Shown: piece by piece, positions 1,829-41,558 of the stretch
Position numbering within the stretch: the first letter of the stretch is position 1
Layout: each line of letters starts with the position of its first letter
Source: a virus
Taxonomy: Duplodnaviria > Caudoviricetes
DNA: 64,000 nt
Strand: one strand, 5' to 3'
IMG/VR virus record: IMGVR_UViG_3300046460_000097
Notes under the pieces: generated by a model
What the model was told of the DNA's origin: nothing
Database searches by the model: none
The model's input: the letters and a program-made list of their open reading frames with translations, nothing else
Program-made: the position numbers and the translations under genes

Positions 1829-4800
1829 TTAAGGCACTACTGCGCCTGCTGCACCCACCCACTCAACACCATCCCAGGTGAAGGTAAGGTAAGTGCGGCT
1901 ACCGGTCAGAGCAGGAGGAGACCCCGTGTTCCAGACCAGAGCGGTAGCCCCAGTAGGAGCGAAGGTAATGACACCTGCAGCACCGTTGACTTTCACTACC
2001 ACAACCAACGCACGAGCACCGTTTGGACTAGCAGTCTTCGGACCGTCCGCCAGCGTGATGGTTTTGGCAGTTGCACCGGAGTTATCGATCCGGCAGAACA
2101 GGTTAACGTTCGGGTCGATGCCACCAGTCGCAGACAGGGCCAGAATCGGCACGTCGTAACGGTCGAAGGAGACCCAGCCAGTGCCTTTGTAGACGTATTG
2201 CTTACCGTCGTTCGCAGGCGCTGCGATACCTTGAGCTGGCAGAACCACCCAAGTCTTGTCGCCCTTACGGACATACAAGTTGCTGTCCGTTGGGACGTCA
2301 GCGAAGCCAGGTACGAATGCAGTGATCTGCGCCTGGATTTTGCCGAAGGCCGTGAGGACCGTGTCAGCAGCAGTGATAGCACCACCAGTACCGAAGGAGA
2401 CACCAGCCAGCGTAACTGCACGCACACGAGCAGGGGTGTGGTAGAGGTTAGTCGTACCTTCAGCTACGGCGTCTGTAGTTCCAGGCGAAGCTACCAGTCC
2501 AATGTAAACAGAACCAGTCCAGCGGAACTGTGCGTTGGTTGCGAGGGAGATGTAGATCTTCCCTGTTTCACCCGTTGCAGGGAATGCCGCTTGGTTAGCA
2601 AACTCCAGAACGTCATCGACGTAGCTAGGCAACTGACCTGCTGGGATCTTGCCAGCAACCAGAGTCGGAACACTAACACCCAACTCAGCAACCGGAACAC
2701 CACCCAAGCTGGTAATCGTAGGAACGTTATACTGCAGCCAAGTGTGGTCACCTTTACGCAGGTAGGTGTTGCTGTCCGTAGGAACGTCAGCGAACCCTGG
2801 GAATGGCAGTTCAACCCACTCACCTTCGTTGTCGGTGTTACCATCCTTGAGAGAACGGACGTACATCTTGCCCGGTTCCATGTCTGGCACTTCGTCAACC
2901 GGCAGTACGATCCACTCGTTGCCCAGACGTACAGCCTTACCGAAGGACAGCAGCGGCGAGTTAACATCACCCGCAACCAGTTGACCCCAGTACTGCCAGC
3001 CGCCTACAGCAGACTTGTAGTAGACCTTGAAGGTATCCGACACAGCCCAGTCACCGATGTTACCGGTGAAACCTGCACCCGGTTCATCAACACCAGCAGG
3101 CAGAGTAATCCAGACGGAGCCTTTATCACCCTTGTCGCCTTTCTTGCCGATACCGATAGGGCCTTGAACACCTTGAACACCCTGAGGACCACGAACCAGA
3201 CCGATGTCGATCCACTTGCCGCCTTCAGCAGTAGTCCAGATAGCCAGGTTGTTACCAACCAGATAGCCATCGCCCAGTGTACCGGTCGGATGAGCAGCAG
3301 CCAGATCACCGATGGTGTTGTACGCACCCAAGATCTGGATGGACGTACCTGGATCGCCCTTCTCACCGTTTTCACCTGGAGGACCCTCTGGACCGGTGAT
3401 GTCGAATGGACCTTCCCACTCGCCTTCAGTCAGAACGTAGAGTTCCTTGGTGCTGACGATGAACCAGCCGTCACCATTCTGAGCACCCTGTTGGATGCTA
3501 GGCAGGTATTGAGGACCAGCCACGTAACCACGCAGGTTGATACCGGTACCTTGGTCACCTTTAGGGCCAGGAGCGCCCACAGGACCACAGTCAACCCACA
3601 CACCGCCCAAGGAGATGAACAGGATGTTGTTCAGGTCGACGTAAGCCTTACCTGGGTTGGTCACTGGATCTGGAACTTCTTCGTTACCAGGAGTCAGGAT
3701 CTTGATGATCGTGATCGAGGAGCCGTTAGCACCAGGAGAACCGTTCTCACCGTCAGCGCCTTTGAAGGAACCCAGCGCTACCCAGTTACCGCCGATCTGA
3801 GCATACAGGGTGTTGGTGTCACGTACAGCCCATACATCTTGTTCCGCTGGAGAAGCCGGCAGTGCGGTGTAAGTAGCAACCGAACCCTTAACGATGATGT
3901 TGGTACCGTTGGTACCGTTGGTGCCTTTCAGCGAAGCCAAGAACTCAGCCGACGAACCGGTGAAGCCCTGAGACAGCCACAGTTGGTAAGTAGACTGCCC
4001 GCGGAAAGGACCAACGTCTACCCAGTTACCGCCGGTGAGAACATGCAGGTGACCGTCGTCATCGGTAACGTAACCATCCTGCTCTACCGGGTTAACGATG
4101 TTACCCAGTTGAGGAGCGTTGGCGACAGTGCCTTTAACGTTCAGGTTCTGACCGCGTGGACCTTCTGGACCCGGAACAACAGAGTGCAACGAAGTCAACC
4201 ACTGTTGCAGTGTGCCGCCGTAACCGTCAGTGACAGCGAGATCGTAAGCAGACAGACCGCCTACAGAACCCAAGTCGACATATTCGCCCGGATCAGTTAC
4301 CCAGACGTACAGGTGGCTACCAACGTACCAAGCCTCGGTTGGAGTACCCGGAGTTGGCAGAGCTGCTTCGTTAACCTTGGAGCCCTTAACTTCGAACGGG
4401 GCACGAGCAGGACCTTCAGGACCTTCAGGACCTGGAGTGATCGAAACCAGACTGGCGAGGAATGCGTCTTCGTCACCAACACCACCTCGGTCTTTCCAGA
4501 TCTGGTAAGCGGACTTACCAATCAGAGTCGCCAGCCATTGAGGCTTGGTACCCACGAAACCTGTTTCAACAGCCGTGTCATAGGCACTTTGACCTTCAGG
4601 GCCTTCCAGACCGATGGAGTTCCAAACTGGATCCAGGTCAGGATCGCTGCCGTCACCACCCGGGATCAGCAACCACAGGTCGCTCTTCCAGATGTAGGCA
4701 TCACCGATGGTCGAAGACTGCCACGCAGGAAGCGCAGAGCCATCAGGCCATGTACCCAGCAGGGTAACACCGCGTTGACCCAGCAGAGAACCAGAGCTTG

Positions 4801-34364: not shown

Positions 34365-35984
34365 ATGAAACCCACGAACCTTACGTTACTGGACTTTAAC
34401 AAGATTGTACCGGGTGTTTATAAACCCGTTACGTCCACTGACGCGTTTGAAGGCATGACCCAGAACCTCAACGACGAGGGGCTGTATTCCATCGAGATCT
34501 TTGGTAAGTTGGGCAGCAAAGAGCGCGACGAAACCGAAGCGTACATTGATACCAAGTTGGATATTTTCAACCCGACGTACTTCGGGGCACTGGCTCAAGT
34601 TAAGGGTCTCTACCTCGGAATTCTCAAAGGGACGGAATACGCGGTATGGGATCCGGAGACCAAGGATTTCATAAAATCCAACCTGCTGGAAGGCGAGACT
34701 GGGTTCAGTTTCTTTATTAAGCACTTTAACAAGTTGACACCGTCTACCACCGATTCCTATAAACGGAAACAACGGGTAGCCTTGATCAGCCGTTTCAAGC
34801 CAGTGGCGCTGGCGCCTAAGGTATTGGTGCCGCCTGCTGGCCTGCGCGACATCGAGTTCCAGCCTAACGGGGTTCCTGTTGAGCCTGAGATCACCGAACT
34901 CTACCGCAAGCTGTTGTTCCGTACTCGCGTAGTATCGTTGAGCAGCAACGGTGAAGATTCTGAGAACCCTCTGTACGATACTGTGCGTTGGGGTTTGCAG
35001 AACTCTTATAACGAAATCGACCAGTACATCTTCAGCCTGCTGGACGGCAAGGGAGGTCTGATGCAACGCCGGGTTTCTACTCGTGGCGTGGTGTCTGGTA
35101 CCCGTAACGTTATTACCGCGCGTAAGGTCTCCAGACCGAATCTGTTCCAGACCAACGGGGTTGACCCTAACACGACCGACATCGGGCTGTATCAGGCTCT
35201 CCTGAACTTCCAGTACGTCTGTATCCATGCACTCCTCACTCGCTACCTGGAAAACATCTTCACTCCGGGTTCACAAAGTGTGAAGTTGGTGAATACTAAA
35301 ACGCTGGAGTATGAATATGTTGAGGTGGCACCTGCTGTCGTCGAGAAATGGTCAACGGCTACGGGCCTGACCAAACTCTTCAACGGGTTCGGTAACAGCC
35401 GTCTGCGTTCCAAGCCTATTATGATCAGCGGCCACTATCTGGCACTGGTTTACGATGATGGCACTGACGTTTGTGTCCTCAACGACATCAACGACCTGCC
35501 AGAAGGTAAGGACAAGAAACTGGTTACTCCTATCACGTATATGGAGTTGTTCTACCTGTCCTGTCACAAGACCATCATGGAACAAGTGACACAGCAGACT
35601 CGTTACCCCGTAATTGGTATCGGTTCGATTGTACCGGCTAAGGTTAACCTTCTGACTATTGAAGGCGCCAGCACTCGGAACATTCGTACCACTGATTGGG
35701 ATATCAAGGAAACCTGCACTCGCTACCCGCACAAGACTGACAGTCCTGATTACTTCGACGCCATGTCGGTTGACCCTACTCGTGAAGCCGGTTACGACTC
35801 CGACCACGACGGTGACCAACTGAACAGCAACAGCGTCTGCGGTGAAGACAGCAAGGCCCAAGTACATGACCTGCTGGGCAAGCGCGAATACTACATCAGT
35901 GGTAGCGGTCGTTTCCTGTATGACCCTGTCAACGAACCCATTTTGTTTATGCTGAAGGCCGCCACCAGCGGTATGGAGGAATAA
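34365..35984 (+). CDS. rpoC: Virion RNA polymerase beta' subunit, N-terminal fragment (phiKZ gp180-like)
   Basis: 539 aa; GLYSIEIFG, VPPAGLRD, TRYPV and catalytic D-S-D-H-D-G-D motif. Confidence 0.9.
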   Translation: MKPTNLTLLDFNKIVPGVYKPVTSTDAFEGMTQNLNDEGLYSIEIFGKLGSKERDETEAYIDTKLDIFNPTYFGALAQVKGLYLGILKGTEYAVWDPETKDFIKSNLLEGETGFSFFIKHFNKLTPSTTDSYKRKQRVALISRFKPVALAPKVLVPPAGLRDIEFQPNGVPVEPEITELYRKLLFRTRVVSLSSNGEDSENPLYDTVRWGLQNSYNEIDQYIFSLLDGKGGLMQRRVSTRGVVSGTRNVITARKVSRPNLFQTNGVDPNTTDIGLYQALLNFQYVCIHALLTRYLENIFTPGSQSVKLVNTKTLEYEYVEVAPAVVEKWSTATGLTKLFNGFGNSRLRSKPIMISGHYLALVYDDGTDVCVLNDINDLPEGKDKKLVTPITYMELFYLSCHKTIMEQVTQQTRYPVIGIGSIVPAKVNLLTIEGASTRNIRTTDWDIKETCTRYPHKTDSPDYFDAMSVDPTREAGYDSDHDGDQLNSNSVCGEDSKAQVHDLLGKREYYISGSGRFLYDPVNEPILFMLKAATSGMEE

Positions 35985-35988
35985 CGGT

Positions 35989-38900
35989 ATGCAGCAACCT
36001 ATTGAACTGAGAGGTTTCTTGCAGTCTGTAGCCGGGTTGGAGTGGTTAGACCAACCCTTGGGCGTTGCTTGCCCTCTGGCTGCTGTGACTGGCAGTGAAG
36101 CACTGGCTCAGTACGCAATGTTCTACAAAGCGTTTGTACAACGCAAGAAGCAAGAGTTGGTATCGCCTAACTTCATTGGCATCGGTGAGATCATTCTCCC
36201 ACGGGCTTCGTTGGTTCATTACTTCCCGGCTAACCCTCTGGAAGTAGGTCCTACCACTTCTGAAGCATTCATCAGTAACTATCCTGATGATGTGTTCGTC
36301 GAGTTCCCTACACACTTCACTCCGGTAATTGGTAGTGGGCGTGCGGTGGCCATTGAAGTCCGTAAGGTTATCCAGGGATATCGTGCGAGTCATTACACGT
36401 ATAACTGGACCAAGGACATCGGTACCGTTTACAATAAAGACAAAGTGTTGATCGTCAAGACTTACGGTCTGATCGACAAGATGTGGGTTGCTCGTCCTTC
36501 GATGTTCATTAACTTCGAGCGACACTACAACCGTTATTCGATGCTGATGGATAGCATCAACGCAGAAGCTGTTAAGGGTAAGCGTAAGCAGTTCTTCCGT
36601 ATTGACCTGCCGTTGCACCTGCCTAGCTTCAGTGAACTGTTGATCGATTACGATCACTACATCGAAAGCTTTAAAGACGGCATTCCACATGCCAGTAACA
36701 AAACCGTTCGCTTGACCAAAGCAGAAAGCTCGTATTGGTTGATGGACTGGATGGCCTACCTCTTCGGGGATACCGAGTACAGCTTGTTCGGCAAGTTGAC
36801 TCCTGAAGCCATCGACAGCATGCACCTGATCTTTGCTTTCAACAGTCGTTCCTTGGTGCTGCATCTGGGTACGCTGAAAGGCTGGTTGGACGAACTGCTG
36901 GAAAGCAAGTACGCACCAAAGGAAGGTAAAGGTCCCGAGAGTCATCGTGCAGGGCATCCAAAGCGTCTGAACGTGTCTAAGCGGGTTTACCTCGCATTGT
37001 TGAACCTCACTCGTGGTGGCATTAGTGAAGGAGAAGTTGTAAAGGAGGAGGAAAATGTCAGAGAAGGAGAAGAGGCCGAAGCGTCTGGCTCTGTGGCTGC
37101 AGCAGCGAAGGGATCTGAGAAAGGAAAAGGACGAGCATCCAGCGAAGGAGGAGGGGGCAAAGTTTCTGGCAAGATTGACACTGCCCCAACTGTTTCTGGT
37201 GGTGGCTCTATCCTTGATGTTCTCGATCCTGTTCAAAGAGTGGACAGCGGAGATGCTGAAGGGACCGGACAAGAGGGAGACGCAAGCGATCCTGAGAGCG
37301 TTGAGGAATGGACATCCCATGTAGATGACACTCTACTGGAACAAGAGTCCACTGTTACCGAAACCTCTACCGCCAAGGATCCGTTCCCTAAGCTGGAGAG
37401 TGGTATCTCCGCAGCTCTTGAAGAACGTGCACGTGATGGCGTCCTGACGGTTGCTGAGCAACAGTTCTTCATGCGTAAGGGTACCCAAGTCTACAAGATC
37501 AAGATGGAGAACGGCCAGACGCTGGCTGAGTTCATTGAGATCGACGACAAGGAACTGAAGACCCTCAGCAGTGACGCCAAGATCGAAGGTAACTTCCCCA
37601 CTATTCTCGATGAGAGTATGTTGGTGAGTCGTGCCAAGGTATTGAAGCAGGGCTATGTGGATAAGTTCCTCCACAAAGATACTGCTCGTATGGTTGTCAG
37701 TATTCAGAACGCTGGCTTTGCTCTCAACGATTTCAAACACACCATTGTTTCCGGTGTTGAAGGTTCCTATGACGTCTATGGGTTCCAAGTTCATCATGTT
37801 GATGGCGAACAATCGACTCACCAGATCCGCATGCCTCGCGTGGGCAAGGATGGTGCGTTCATGGTCGACGGCGTTAAGACCCACCTCCAACTGCAACGGA
37901 TGGAGCTGGTGGTTCGCAAGATTGGTAAAGACAAGGTTGCACTGACCACCCACTACGACCGTAAGCTGATGATCTCTCGCAGCAAGAAGGTAGTAGACGA
38001 CCTAGGTCTGTGGATGGTCAAGCAAGTCCTCCTGAAGGCCTCTGTGGCTGCGAACGGGATTACCTTGAGCCGTGGTAGCGGTTACAACAAAGACTTGGTC
38101 AGTCCGCGTATCTACAGCCTCTTTGCCACCAAGTTCCAATGGATCGCCAAAGGTGACATTACCTTGGACTTCCGCATCGACAAGTTGCTGGAAGAGTACC
38201 CTCAGTTCAAGAAGTACACCAAGCAGGACATGTTCCTTATTGGCGTGAAGGACAAGAAGCCGTTGACCATCGACAGTTACGGTAACCTGTACCTGGACGA
38301 GAAAGAGTTCAACACCATTGAAGGTCTGCTGGATATCCATGGCGCCAAGACTCCTAGCGAGTACGCCGTGATCAACATCAGCGGTTACCCGTTCCCGATG
38401 GGTGTTGTGCTCTGCTACTACTTTGGTATTGATGAGCTGTTAAAGGTTATCAAAGCGGAAACTCGCTCGGTGCCTATGGGTACCCGTCCGAAGTTGGGGC
38501 CTGACGAATATTCCATCCAGTTTAACGACGAGTATCTGATCTTTAACCGTCGTGAGAAGCTGACCACCTTGATCTTCGGTGGCATGCCTAAGTTGACCAA
38601 CATCAGTAACTTCAGTCGAAGTGACCTGAACAACAAAGGCATTTGGGGTCCTTTGATGGGGGATCCGAAAGTCCGTCCACAACAGTTCTTGGAAATGAAG
38701 AACCTCTACGACATGTTCATCGACCCGATCTCCAAAGATCAGTTGAAGCGCATGGGGTACTCCACTTCCTTCCACCACCTGCTGATTGACGCTACGAAGC
38801 TGCTGGAGACCGATTACACTCGACACGGTGTAGAGATCGAGGAACAACGGGTCGTTGGCTACGAGCGCTTTGCGGGGCACATGTACCGTGAGCTGGTGAG

Positions 38901-40428
38901 CTCTGTTCGTAAGTTCCGCAGTAAGGGCAAGGGTCGTAAGCAGAAACTCGACATTAACCCTGAAGCGGTGATTGTGAACATCCTCAAGGACACCTCGGTG
39001 AACTTGGTAGAGGAAGTTAACCCGATTCACCAATGTAAGGATCAGGAAGAGCTGACCTTCGGTGGTACGGGTGGTCGTAGTGGTATCACCGTCGTTAAGC
39101 GTGACCGTGTTCAGTTGGACAGTTACCGGGGCATTGTGTCTGAGGCGAACAAGGACAGCGGGCAAGTAGGTTTCGTTACCTACCTGACTTCTGACCCTCG
39201 CATCGAAGACTACCGGGGCAACATCAACCTCAAGGAGAAACCTTCCTTGACGGGTATTAACTCGGTAACGGGTAACTTGGCTTTTGGTATGTCTAAGGAC
39301 GACCCTAAGCGGGGGATGTTTACCAGCACACAGGCTAGCCAAGCGGTCAGCGCACAGAACTACAGCCCGAACATCAGTCGTACCGGTTATGACAACATCA
39401 TCGCACACCGTACTTCCGAGTTGTACAGTAAGGTGGCGAGCGATGACGGTAAGGTGACTCAGGTTACCGACGACATGCTGGAAGTGACGTATGCGGATGG
39501 GACTGTCGACAAATACCCTCTGGGTCTGGAGATCGGTGAGGCAAGCGGTGAGTACCACCGACACACTCGTATTACCGATATGAAAGTAGGCGACAAGTTC
39601 AAGAAGGGTGATGTCCTCGGCTTCGACAAGCAGTGGTTTACTCGGGATATCTTCTGCCCTGGTCAAGTTGCTTGGAACGCAGGTCGTATGGTTCGCATTG
39701 CGTTGGTAGAAGACCAAGATACCTACGAAGACTCCATCGCTATCTCGAAAGAGATCATGGAAGAATCGGTTACTCCTTTCATCAAGATTAAACGCTTTGC
39801 TGTTGATGTCGAGCAAGTCGTTAACTTCCGGGTGAAAGTAGGGGATCAAATCGACTACGACGCGATTTTATGCGAAATCGAAGACGACCACCAAGTCGGT
39901 GGCGGAGGTGATAATGAATTGGCCAGTGATGTTAACCGGCTAGGCATTAAGCAAGTCCGTTCCACTCACCACGGTGAAGTCGTTCAAATCGATGTAACCT
40001 ACAACTCTCCACTGGAGAAGATGTCCGAAGGTGTGCGCAAGTTCATTGTGGCTAACGACAAGCTGCGGAAACGCAAAGCCTCTATCGATAGCACCAAGTC
40101 AGAAACCGGTAGCGTGAGTAACAACCTCAACGTGAACAAACCGGTACTGGCTCCGGGCAAAGCACTCTTCGAGATCTACGTGGAGTCGATGGACCCAAGC
40201 ACCATCTCCGACAAATACGTCATCGGCAACCAGATGAAGGGTACTGTCGGCAGTGTGATCAAGAAGGCTTTGATGACACGCGACGGGCGCAAGATCGACG
40301 TGAAGGCTAGCTTTAAAGGTATGTTTAACCGGATGGTTCTTAGCCTTCGGGATAAACTGGCGTCTAACGAAGTGACTATCCAGATCACTCGGAAGTTCAT
40401 CGCTATTTACAGGGGTACCAATAAATGA
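35989..40428 (+). CDS. rpoB: Virion RNA polymerase beta subunit, N-terminal fragment (phiKZ gp178-like)
   Basis: 1479 aa; DDPKRGMFTSTQASQA, RTGYD, DTYEDSI.IS, GNQMKGTVG motifs. Confidence 0.9.
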   Translation: MQQPIELRGFLQSVAGLEWLDQPLGVACPLAAVTGSEALAQYAMFYKAFVQRKKQELVSPNFIGIGEIILPRASLVHYFPANPLEVGPTTSEAFISNYPDDVFVEFPTHFTPVIGSGRAVAIEVRKVIQGYRASHYTYNWTKDIGTVYNKDKVLIVKTYGLIDKMWVARPSMFINFERHYNRYSMLMDSINAEAVKGKRKQFFRIDLPLHLPSFSELLIDYDHYIESFKDGIPHASNKTVRLTKAESSYWLMDWMAYLFGDTEYSLFGKLTPEAIDSMHLIFAFNSRSLVLHLGTLKGWLDELLESKYAPKEGKGPESHRAGHPKRLNVSKRVYLALLNLTRGGISEGEVVKEEENVREGEEAEASGSVAAAAKGSEKGKGRASSEGGGGKVSGKIDTAPTVSGGGSILDVLDPVQRVDSGDAEGTGQEGDASDPESVEEWTSHVDDTLLEQESTVTETSTAKDPFPKLESGISAALEERARDGVLTVAEQQFFMRKGTQVYKIKMENGQTLAEFIEIDDKELKTLSSDAKIEGNFPTILDESMLVSRAKVLKQGYVDKFLHKDTARMVVSIQNAGFALNDFKHTIVSGVEGSYDVYGFQVHHVDGEQSTHQIRMPRVGKDGAFMVDGVKTHLQLQRMELVVRKIGKDKVALTTHYDRKLMISRSKKVVDDLGLWMVKQVLLKASVAANGITLSRGSGYNKDLVSPRIYSLFATKFQWIAKGDITLDFRIDKLLEEYPQFKKYTKQDMFLIGVKDKKPLTIDSYGNLYLDEKEFNTIEGLLDIHGAKTPSEYAVINISGYPFPMGVVLCYYFGIDELLKVIKAETRSVPMGTRPKLGPDEYSIQFNDEYLIFNRREKLTTLIFGGMPKLTNISNFSRSDLNNKGIWGPLMGDPKVRPQQFLEMKNLYDMFIDPISKDQLKRMGYSTSFHHLLIDATKLLETDYTRHGVEIEEQRVVGYERFAGHMYRELVSSVRKFRSKGKGRKQKLDINPEAVIVNILKDTSVNLVEEVNPIHQCKDQEELTFGGTGGRSGITVVKRDRVQLDSYRGIVSEANKDSGQVGFVTYLTSDPRIEDYRGNINLKEKPSLTGINSVTGNLAFGMSKDDPKRGMFTSTQASQAVSAQNYSPNISRTGYDNIIAHRTSELYSKVASDDGKVTQVTDDMLEVTYADGTVDKYPLGLEIGEASGEYHRHTRITDMKVGDKFKKGDVLGFDKQWFTRDIFCPGQVAWNAGRMVRIALVEDQDTYEDSIAISKEIMEESVTPFIKIKRFAVDVEQVVNFRVKVGDQIDYDAILCEIEDDHQVGGGGDNELASDVNRLGIKQVRSTHHGEVVQIDVTYNSPLEKMSEGVRKFIVANDKLRKRKASIDSTKSETGSVSNNLNVNKPVLAPGKALFEIYVESMDPSTISDKYVIGNQMKGTVGSVIKKALMTRDGRKIDVKASFKGMFNRMVLSLRDKLASNEVTIQITRKFIAIYRGTNK
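37055..37324 (+). CDS. Candidate overprinted single-TM membrane protein in +1 frame of RNAP beta
   Basis: 89 aa; AAAGGAGGAGG RBS before ATG; 20-residue hydrophobic stretch; host frame here is a low-complexity linker with atypical codons. Confidence 0.6.
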   Translation: MSEKEKRPKRLALWLQQRRDLRKEKDEHPAKEEGAKFLARLTLPQLFLVVALSLMFSILFKEWTAEMLKGPDKRETQAILRALRNGHPM

Positions 40429-41354
40429 ACTACAGTACCGTCAACGGTGTTAAAGACATCCAAGTCCTGTTAAAGGAAGCGGCTGTCTACACTGGCAAGA
40501 TTGACGGTGTCTGGGGTACTGGAACTCGGGATGCAGTCTTGAAGTTATTTCATGGCTGCCGTCTCCCGACTGCCGGGGGTCAAACGACCCTCGTTTCCAT
40601 CTCCGCAGGCTCCGACTTCGCTGGTGCTAAAGATGGCATCATGGGCATTCAGAGCAATCTGAAGTTGTTCCAATTGTACACCGGTGCCGTCGATGGCTTG
40701 ATGGGTCCCGGTACGTTCAAAGGTTTCTATGCTGCATTCGTCGCTTATCGTAAAGCGAACAAGCTGCCGGTCTATGACCTCGGCTGGAGCAAACGGGTGC
40801 CGGGCATCTTCACTCAACGTGTCAAGCAGTGGTGTGATGCCAAGGGTTACTGGGCAAACGCTGCACACGGTCTCATGGGCTGCATGAGCTTCGAGTCCGG
40901 TAACACCTTCAGTCCTTCCAAGCAGAACAACGGTGGGGCCAAGTACTTTGGTCTGATCCAGTTCGGCGATGCGGCTTGCCAAGATCTGGCCAAGTTCCTG
41001 AAAGACCCAAGCATCACTCTGGAAGCTGTTAAGGCTATGTCCCAGATGGATCAGCTGGAGTTGGTCTTCAAGTACTTCGCCATGTGGGAAAGCCGTGGCA
41101 AGGTTTACAAGCGCATGGAAGACTTCTACCTGACGATCTTCTACCCTGCCGCTGTTGGCAAGGCTCCGGATGAGGTGTTGTTCACCAAGAATTCCGCTGT
41201 TCCAATCATCGCCAAGTCGTACCTGCAAAACAACGGGTTCGATCTGGACAAAGATGGCGCCATTACTGTTGGCGAAATCTGTACACGTGTTTCCCAAGCT
41301 TACTACGACGGTCTGGATCCGGCTAACCGGAATATCCTGTCGGTCGCCGCCTAA
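40425..41354 (+). CDS. Modular endolysin (two peptidoglycan-binding repeats plus lysozyme/transglycosylase-like domain)
   Basis: 309 aa; Y.GKIDGVWG.GT and YTGAVDGLMGPGT PG-binding motifs; catalytic MSFES...YFGLIQF; ATGA overlap with beta gene. Confidence 0.85.
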   Translation: MNYSTVNGVKDIQVLLKEAAVYTGKIDGVWGTGTRDAVLKLFHGCRLPTAGGQTTLVSISAGSDFAGAKDGIMGIQSNLKLFQLYTGAVDGLMGPGTFKGFYAAFVAYRKANKLPVYDLGWSKRVPGIFTQRVKQWCDAKGYWANAAHGLMGCMSFESGNTFSPSKQNNGGAKYFGLIQFGDAACQDLAKFLKDPSITLEAVKAMSQMDQLELVFKYFAMWESRGKVYKRMEDFYLTIFYPAAVGKAPDEVLFTKNSAVPIIAKSYLQNNGFDLDKDGAITVGEICTRVSQAYYDGLDPANRNILSVAA

Positions 41355-41384: not shown

Positions 41385-41558
41385 ATGACTGACAAAGCTT
41401 TGATTGACAAAATCATCACTGTGGCTAACGTCACAGAGTTGGTAAAGAAGACCGTCGCCAAACTGGGCCTGGAATTCATCGCACCCCTGGACGAATCGAT
41501 CCAGGATGAAAAGATCAGCAAGGCCATCGTGGCTCGCACTAAAGGGACTTCGAAATGA
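41385..41558 (+). CDS. Small hypothetical protein (57 aa, below ORF track cutoff)
   Basis: AAGGAG RBS, MTDKALIDKIITVANVTELVKKTVAKLGLEF...; ATGA overlap with 41555. Confidence 0.75.
   Translation: MTDKALIDKIITVANVTELVKKTVAKLGLEFIAPLDESIQDEKISKAIVARTKGTSK

Follow-up and report, generated by a model that had tools for sequence, protein, structure and literature searches.

The window examined here, a 64,000-nucleotide stretch from the IMG/VR virus record IMGVR_UViG_3300046460_000097 (Duplodnaviria; Caudoviricetes), carries a gene for the beta-type subunit of the virion RNA polymerase (RNAP), within which lies a second open reading frame (ORF) in the +1 frame, predicted to encode a single-pass membrane protein of 89 aa. 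Comparison with related jumbo phages makes it very likely, at the least, that this nested frame (37055-37324) is a real, translated protein-coding gene, and codon-level data indicate that it is under purifying selection and has been so since its origin in the clade that carries it. Over the 90 overlapping codons it is the polymerase frame that, judged from the same data, is evolving neutrally and need only stay open. Overprinting itself is known; what is new here is an unreported and unannotated gene that is conserved across a large clade including model phages. The features on which the analysis rests are listed first.

35989-40428, + strand: host gene (P0002), virion RNA polymerase beta-type subunit, 1479 aa, phrog_3148 (E=0)
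Host residues about 345-445: acidic/Gly-rich linker bearing the nested gene
37043-37051, + strand: Shine-Dalgarno (SD) run AGGAGGAGG, host codons for K-E-E-E
37055-37324, + strand: nested gene (P0001), overprinted single-pass membrane protein, 89 aa plus stop (37322-37324)
37055-37174, + strand: N-terminal basic domain, aa 1-40, predicted cytoplasmic, 13 K/R versus 8 D/E
37175-37234, + strand: transmembrane (TM) helix, aa 41-60, Kyte-Doolittle 17-residue maximum 2.25
37235-37321, + strand: C-terminal tail, aa 61-89, predicted periplasmic, helix P-x-E-x-R-E-x-E-x-[IL]-[LM], ending near a Gly

A nested reading frame in the polymerase linker

The frame of 37055-37324 is +1 relative to the 1479-aa ORF at 35989-40428, and the features from which the original prediction proposed a dual-coding region, using the letters of the window alone, are all present. 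The ATG at 37055 opens 89 codons in the +1 frame, and upstream of it lies the purine run AAAGGAGGAGGAAA, which contains the AGGAGG ending 6 nt before the ATG and, in addition, a second overlapping copy ending 3 nt upstream. Residues 1-40 contain 13 K/R and 8 D/E, and the 20-residue hydrophobic segment corresponds to residues 41-60 (37175-37234). The host gene is indeed that of a virion RNAP beta subunit, with an E=0 match to phrog_3148 and phiKZ gp178 as its counterpart. The codon skew also stands: GGA accounts for 9 of the 17 Gly codons in the overlap versus 3 of 104 in the remaining host gene (Fisher p=4e-7), the three host Arg codons in the overlap are all AGA or CGA (5 of 72 elsewhere in the gene), and 14 of the 21 host codons over the TM segment end in T, the amino acids predicting 7.4 (binomial p=9e-5 against the gene-wide fraction of T at third positions). 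This rare-codon skew is imposed by the other frame.

Openness of the +1 frame in the window's own sequence is not significant. When the window is reshuffled synonymously with the host amino-acid sequence held fixed, the +1 frame is open in 26% of the reshuffles (P=0.26 given the host protein), and an open frame together with an equally hydrophobic segment is found in 0.8%. Since openness is weak in one sequence, the case for more than chance comes from comparison with relatives.

Selection on the two frames

Selection was estimated with an OLGenie-style pairwise method, in which every possible and observed change is classed by what it does to each of the two frames. In a comparison of six close relatives, changes in the overlap that are nonsynonymous in the host frame and silent in the +1 frame accumulate at d=0.67, a level like that of silent sites in the remaining gene (0.65-0.76), and host-silent changes that alter the +1 protein accumulate at d=0.13. 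The ratio of nonsynonymous to synonymous change (dN/dS) for the +1 frame (dNN/dNS) is 0.15 (bootstrap confidence interval (CI) 0.09-0.24), that for the polymerase frame is 0.75 (CI 0.38-1.56), and the +2 control over the same interval gives 1.6. In the remaining gene the polymerase frame has a value of 0.08 and the +1 frame 0.69-0.83. Selection at the codon level thus sits on the +1 frame, and not on the polymerase frame, within the overlap. Five subclades were compared in the same way, with the following +1 dN/dS values in the overlap.

Window-like subclade: 0.27
53-56% identity group: 0.16
42-43% identity group: 0.05
Vibrio phages: 0.36
OBP-like phages: about 0.41

In all five (5/5) the CI of the +1 value lies below 1, and the polymerase-frame values in the overlap are 0.6-1.3. 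Over these tests the controls range from 0.67 to 0.86 for the +1 frame elsewhere in the gene and from 1.1 to 3.9 for the +2 frame, and the host-frame dN/dS outside the overlap is 0.05-0.11. The switch of constraint from one frame to the other coincides with the boundaries of the nested ORF:

50 codons upstream of the ORF: host-frame dN/dS 0.22, +1-frame 0.75
Nested ORF, in three parts: host-frame dN/dS about 1, +1-frame 0.13, 0.34 and 0.44
55 codons downstream of the ORF: host-frame dN/dS 0.10, +1-frame 0.66

The same is seen in the proteins: in none of 21 close pairs is the +1 product less conserved than the host linker (86% vs 58%, for example), and similarities in these pairs are 86-93% in the +1 frame vs 68-80% in the host frame. 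The host frame is open in every lineage, yet just 0.05% of synonymous reshuffles of the nested gene keep it open, and both frames therefore appear to be read, the nested one selected for its sequence and the host for continuity. The host gene has one further long +1 ORF (37655-37945, + strand, 96 aa), which was considered and rejected, as relatives carry +1 stops in it and the host-frame dN/dS there is 0.07; this ORF serves as an internal negative control.

We also considered that no protein is made, in which case linker composition would by itself leave the +1 frame open and conservation of that frame would reflect chance or a constraint at the nucleotide level, such as RNA structure or a regulatory site. 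Several points weigh against a gene in this way: the non-significant openness in the window, which is echoed in the 1-33% of per-lineage reshuffles that leave the +1 frame open; the ease with which SD-like motifs and Lys/Arg codons emerge when a Glu-rich linker is read in +1, making these features weak evidence alone; the presence in this genome of antisense ORFs that are long (424 and 469 aa) yet meaningless; and the absence from the literature, as far as we could find, of published ribosome profiling or membrane proteomics for any carrier phage. Such an explanation is nonetheless highly improbable, as it would not account for the +1 codon periodicity, with +1-silent sites neutral and +1-altering sites evolving about 5-fold slower, in five subclades and with sharp boundaries, nor for the conservative nature of the +1 substitutions. 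The joint probability of openness and an equally hydrophobic segment is moreover <=0.07 in every lineage and often <0.002, and acidic linkers of the phiKZ type are full of +1 stops. The dual-coding inference of the original prediction is thus strongly supported, by retention of the +1 frame as well as by selection on its codons.

Retention and distribution among phages

IMG/VR contains the 110.5-kb contig to which the window belongs, along with numerous relatives. A set of 43 distinct full-length IMG/VR homologues of the host gene, with 37-100% identity, was used for comparison. In 43 of 43 the +1 frame runs open through the linker (one apparent exception was checked) and codes for a product of about 75-122 aa in which a basic N-terminus and one TM segment are followed by a conserved tail; ORF, start and TM segment are thus kept in all relatives down to about 37% identity, and an SD-like purine run is present in most of them. 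The +2 frame over the linker is open for just 13-91 codons (14-54 in a subset of carriers). In the 1479-codon alignment, host residues 357-433 form the sole stretch of more than 18 codons that has no +1 stop in any of the 43 sequences.

The nested gene is present in 14 named phages: the EL-like PaBa1, EL, RisingSun, Joad, Miami, BUCTxx100, VP4B, Aphrodite1, FishSpeaker, OBP, Yubaba, Survivor, pAEv1810 and D3. In EL its ATG is at 197725 and its stop at 197989-197991. It is absent from more remote homologues of the host gene, those of Ea35-70, Goslar, LucasX, RSL2, Phabio, the SPN3US-like SPFM17 and phiKZ gp178, despite a comparable acidic linker. The original prediction had put its product forward for a holin/antiholin or membrane-tether function that is poorly defined in phiKZ-like phages; the gene does not occur in such phages generally, being missing from phiKZ and its closest relatives. 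Carriers are monophyletic on the RNAP tree (20/20), and because they form one clade the distribution fits a single origin, at the base of the EL/RisingSun/Miami/VP4B/FishSpeaker/OBP jumbo-phage clade. None of the GenBank records examined has the nested ORF annotated, and no published report of the gene was found in the literature.

Some departures from this pattern are noted here. In Proteus phage 10, a non-carrier, the situation is ambiguous, with a 69-codon +1 ORF at host codons 428-496 in which a hydrophobic segment is followed by a basic stretch, the reverse of the usual order; it may be a remnant, an independent overprint or chance. Four OBP-like IMG/VR relatives have a +1 frame that is open for about 150 codons, with a second hydrophobic segment upstream of the conserved basic/TM part, and the nested protein could here have two TM segments or be extended further at its N-terminus. 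Six relatives at 42-44% identity have a nested protein with an additional C-terminal segment of ~35 aa that is E/Q/K/R-rich and coiled-coil-like, and the +1 constraint is the strongest of all groups in these phages (dN/dS 0.05).

Architecture of the nested protein

An alignment of 34 family sequences (A2) defines the conserved parts of the protein. The N-terminal domain has the motif W-[LIM]-[QK]-[QEK]-R-R and is the most constrained part, with a +1 dN/dS of 0.13 and a host-frame value of 0.98. A conserved [FL]-L-A-[RK] leads into the TM segment, which has the core L-S-[LVI]-[MIT]-[FL]-S (+1 dN/dS 0.34), and the tail that follows has a +1 dN/dS of 0.44 (CI 0.24-0.77). The nested stop codon sits within the HVDD motif of the host protein. 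An AlphaFold2 (AF2) model made with the 34-sequence alignment has helices at residues 8-26, 29-39, 43-68 and 72-84, with a mean predicted confidence (pLDDT) of 70 and values of 86-90 for the helix at 43-68 that contains the TM segment. The protein is predicted to be a single-pass inner-membrane protein oriented N-in/C-out, because of the positive-inside rule and the 13 K/R in its N-domain.

Searches with the nested protein point to a family that, so far as they reach, exists only as an overprint. Neither the window protein nor any member of the 34-sequence family has a match in Pfam or PHROGs, a word-indexed search with the window protein found none among 5.8 billion proteins, and ESM Atlas gave no usable match. 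A profile search of 1.84 billion representative proteins returned six matches, and the three that were traced are the same nested gene, called where the end of a contig truncates the RNAP gene; no free-standing homologue was seen among these representatives, with three of the six matches traced.

Expression of the nested frame

Each of the 38 distinct nested proteins starts with an ATG upstream of the TM segment, and in nearly all lineages this ATG is 80-108 codons before the stop. In most lineages the equivalent ATG is preceded, at a distance of 5-8 nt, by an SD-like motif (AGGA, AAGGAG, AGGAGG or GAGGT); the start and ribosome-binding site are less clear in Yubaba and OBP. The window, like most close relatives, has a +1 stop just 4-5 codons upstream of the ATG, and constraint on the +1 frame starts at the ATG and not before. 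Taken together, the ubiquitous ATG, the SD-like motifs, the nearby upstream stop and the onset of constraint make internal initiation much likelier than frameshifting, and if the gene is real, independent initiation is very probably how it is expressed. Ribosomes would initiate internally at the SD/ATG on a late mRNA that encodes two RNAP subunits and the endolysin.

The position of the overlap in the polymerase is also relevant. The N-terminal domain of the 201phi2-1 homologue is removed as a propeptide by cleavage at residue 275; processing does not occur in the SPN3US homologue and probably does not in phiKZ gp178 (PMC5694885). Given that the 201phi2-1 domain is separable, the overlap would sit in the flexible stretch that joins a separable N-domain to the body of the polymerase, where a new frame could plausibly arise.

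Programmed frameshifting into the +1 frame would give a different product, in which a ~355-aa N-domain of the RNAP subunit is fused to the basic/TM tail as a membrane-anchored form. SD-like purine runs can stimulate frameshifting, and such runs do lie just upstream of the nested ORF; the separable behavior of the 201phi2-1 N-domain is likewise compatible with a fusion of this kind. The nearby +1 stop, though, leaves a window of only 12-15 nt for the shift in the analysed phage and most close relatives, and this sequence varies between lineages, with no conserved slippery heptamer or slow codon. With the ATG present upstream of the TM segment in 38 of 38 distinct proteins and no +1 constraint before it, we regard frameshifting as very unlikely.

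Genomic context

The host protein identifies 310 jumbo-phage records by tblastn, the best being EL-like (58% identity), with RisingSun and Joad at 54-55%. Its neighbors are:

34365-35984, + strand: second virion RNAP subunit, phiKZ gp180-like, phrog_2986 (E=6.5e-205), upstream of the host gene
40425-41354, + strand: endolysin, 309 aa, PG_binding_1 plus lysozyme/transglycosylase domain
41385-41558, + strand: soluble 57-aa protein, phrog_17945, between the endolysin and head genes

The gene order from 34365 to 40428 is syntenic with phiKZ gp180/gp178. The ATG of the endolysin gene overlaps the stop codon of the host gene (ATGA), and the endolysin has no signal peptide or signal-anchor-release (SAR) sequence, its peptidoglycan-binding domain being at the start. 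An operon shared with the endolysin, as had been proposed, is therefore borne out, the nested gene being on the same strand and in the same unit, 3.1 kb upstream and not adjacent. Homologues of this endolysin are encoded directly 3' of the host gene in RisingSun, the EL-like phages, Aphrodite1, Yubaba, Survivor and others, and the OBP gene in this position is OBP_279, an annotated and characterised endolysin. The 57-aa protein has no TM segment or lipobox and is the positional counterpart of phiKZ 177.1, which follows gp178; beyond it are two virion structural proteins and then the head protease.

Lysis control or another membrane role as possible functions

The 89-aa product would insert in the inner membrane with a cytoplasmic domain of 40 aa that is basic, a single TM helix and, in the periplasm, a helix of 29 aa, and would control lysis for the neighboring signal-less endolysin, either as a holin of class-III topology or as the holin partner or antiholin of a conserved 2-TM protein encoded beside the spanins. 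Our confidence in a lysis-related role of any of these kinds (holin, co-holin or antiholin), which is drawn from context and topology, is evenly balanced, and it is unlikely that the protein is the sole holin. The role is suggested by the translational coupling of the endolysin to the host gene, and many classic overprinted phage genes are lysis genes, including phiX174 E, MS2 L and lambda Rz1.

Another parallel is phiKZ gp142, a 'class IIIb' holin from the same jumbo-phage family that has been shown experimentally to act as a holin and has a single N-in/C-out TM domain, a regulatory soluble domain on the cytoplasmic N-side and a short periplasmic tail (Manohar et al. 2026, PMC12894885). The predicted topology of the nested protein matches that of gp142, whose endolysin is likewise soluble and of the transglycosylase type. 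The two proteins are distributed in a complementary way: homologues of gp142 are found only in the phiKZ-proper group, which is without the nested gene, and are absent from EL, OBP, RisingSun, VP4B and the window contig. They differ in that gp142 is encoded by a free-standing gene for a 131-aa protein in a five-gene lysis cassette, and its N-domain is acidic, helical and about 75-80 aa, whereas that of the nested protein is 40 aa and highly basic.

Several observations count against a lysis function. The A2 alignment shows no homology to gp142 (hhalign probability 0.2%), and the nested protein has no match to a holin family in Pfam or PHROGs. The conserved basic N-terminal motif suggests a specific cytoplasmic partner, and this partner could belong to a process other than lysis. 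As a holin candidate the 2-TM protein is more conventional; in EL (124 aa, 115511-115882, phrog_14084) it is convergent with a Rz/Rz1-like overlapping pair. This pair consists of an i-spanin-like gene (116170-116661, 163 aa, with an N-terminal TM segment and a helical periplasmic part) and an out-of-frame lipoprotein gene that overlaps it (115947-116396, 149 aa, lipobox LILVGC). All three genes are of 'unknown function' in PHROGs, and the region 115511-116661 looks like a lysis cluster without an endolysin; the 2-TM and i-spanin-like genes are conserved together in RisingSun, OBP and VP4B, with the 2-TM gene tandem-duplicated in OBP. Lastly, Ea35-70 has the 2-TM protein and an endolysin gene after its gp178 homologue yet no nested TM ORF, so the nested protein is not universally required to release such an endolysin, and co-occurrence with the downstream endolysin was set aside as an imperfect argument for lysis.

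The nested protein could instead be a real bitopic inner-membrane protein with another job, either a tether or assembly factor for head or ejection proteins, or a superinfection-exclusion or other envelope-modifying protein. Among the possibilities is a tether whose basic cytoplasmic domain binds an acidic partner such as the overlapped RNAP linker itself. The gene lies within a head-protein block that includes two virion RNAP subunits, two virion structural proteins and the head protease, and the virion RNAP is assembled as a multimer before it enters the prohead (PMC5694885). A non-lysis role is also compatible with the strong constraint on the cytoplasmic N-domain, with the presence elsewhere in these genomes of a conventional holin candidate and spanins, and with the arrangement in Ea35-70. 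Weighing on the other side, the gene is clade-specific and its absence from phiKZ, Phabio and Goslar means that the protein cannot be the family's general assembly anchor; its position in the gene directly upstream of the endolysin would be a coincidence, and no family match backs roles of this kind. We consider a non-lysis function a substantial possibility, if one that falls short of even.

A bolder scenario, which we think less likely than not, is that a gene born de novo inside an RNAP spacer became the lysis clock (holin or antiholin) of the EL/OBP-type nucleus-forming phages, with the ancestral frame decaying to a neutrally drifting, stop-free tether.

Comparison with other overprinted genes

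The nested protein resembles the products of the overprinted lysis genes phiX174 E, which lies in gene D, and MS2 L, which lies over coat and replicase, these likewise being small (75-91 aa) single-TM proteins encoded out of frame with their own internal starts. MS2 L has a basic N-domain followed by a hydrophobic domain with a conserved Leu-Ser, and the nested family has the same order with an L-S core in its TM segment, which is a resemblance; neither phiX174 E nor MS2 L has a sequence relationship to the nested protein. Both are single-gene lysis systems of tiny ssDNA or ssRNA phages without an endolysin, whereas here the phage is ~220 kb and has an endolysin and spanins. The overlapped genes of phiX174 and MS2 encode folded proteins, unlike the host frame here, which is a neutrally evolving spacer.

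Lambda Rz1 within Rz, and the Rz/Rz1-like EL pair at 115947-116661, are also cases of a lysis-related envelope protein that is wholly or partly nested in the +1 frame, in dsDNA phages, and illustrate that overprinting is not confined to tiny genomes. Rz1 is hosted by the gene of its functional partner, the nested ORF by that of an RNA polymerase subunit. Lacking a lipobox and any Cys, the nested protein is not an o-spanin, and its periplasmic part of ~29 aa, following a TM segment that begins only at residue 41, is too short for an i-spanin.

That overprinted genes are born over disordered regions of viral proteins is a familiar concept in the overlapping-gene literature, and the nested gene is similarly a young frame over a disordered, low-complexity segment that forces odd codon usage on the older frame. 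It differs in that the usual asymmetry is reversed, with the novel frame holding essentially all of the amino-acid constraint and the ancestral frame none beyond openness.

Other features of the polymerase gene

Among other features of this gene, we note two long antisense ORFs, at 36046-37320 (- strand, 424 aa) and 38440-39849 (- strand, 469 aa), which codon usage seems to have produced as a side effect. On a related contig, a public gene call (3025-3714, - strand) appears to have taken an antisense ORF in place of the polymerase N-terminus.

The polymerase gene is interrupted by an insertion of ~400-460 bp in EL, HHBS8_1 (3386-3844) and others, where it is annotated as two coding sequences with tiny ORFs between them, and is uninterrupted in GXNNE2/GXNNA8. 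Similar splits are present in FishSpeaker (3374-3779), the Aeromonas phages PS1/PS2/CF8 and Pectobacterium phage vB_ParM-25, the last with an HNH endonuclease. The insertion is probably a mobile intron.

Implications for jumbo phages

The analysis adds an unannotated, strongly selected gene to jumbo phages that are used as models or are candidates for therapy, among them EL, OBP and RisingSun as well as phages of Vibrio, Klebsiella and Aeromonas. Its nested position causes gene callers to miss it in every case. As an instance of overprinting it is unusually clear-cut, in a large genome that is not under compression pressure, and can be of use both to theories of de novo gene birth and as a benchmark for overlapping-gene detectors. 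The host linker tolerates substitutions, so clean knockouts of the nested frame are easy to design, and engineering or truncation of the RNAP linker in carrier phages would unknowingly hit the nested gene. The gene is a candidate for the poorly defined control of lysis in the non-phiKZ branch of the Chimalliviridae, and if it does act as a lysis clock, the timing of lysis would be tied to the synthesis of head proteins, because the same late mRNA encodes the packaged polymerase and the endolysin.

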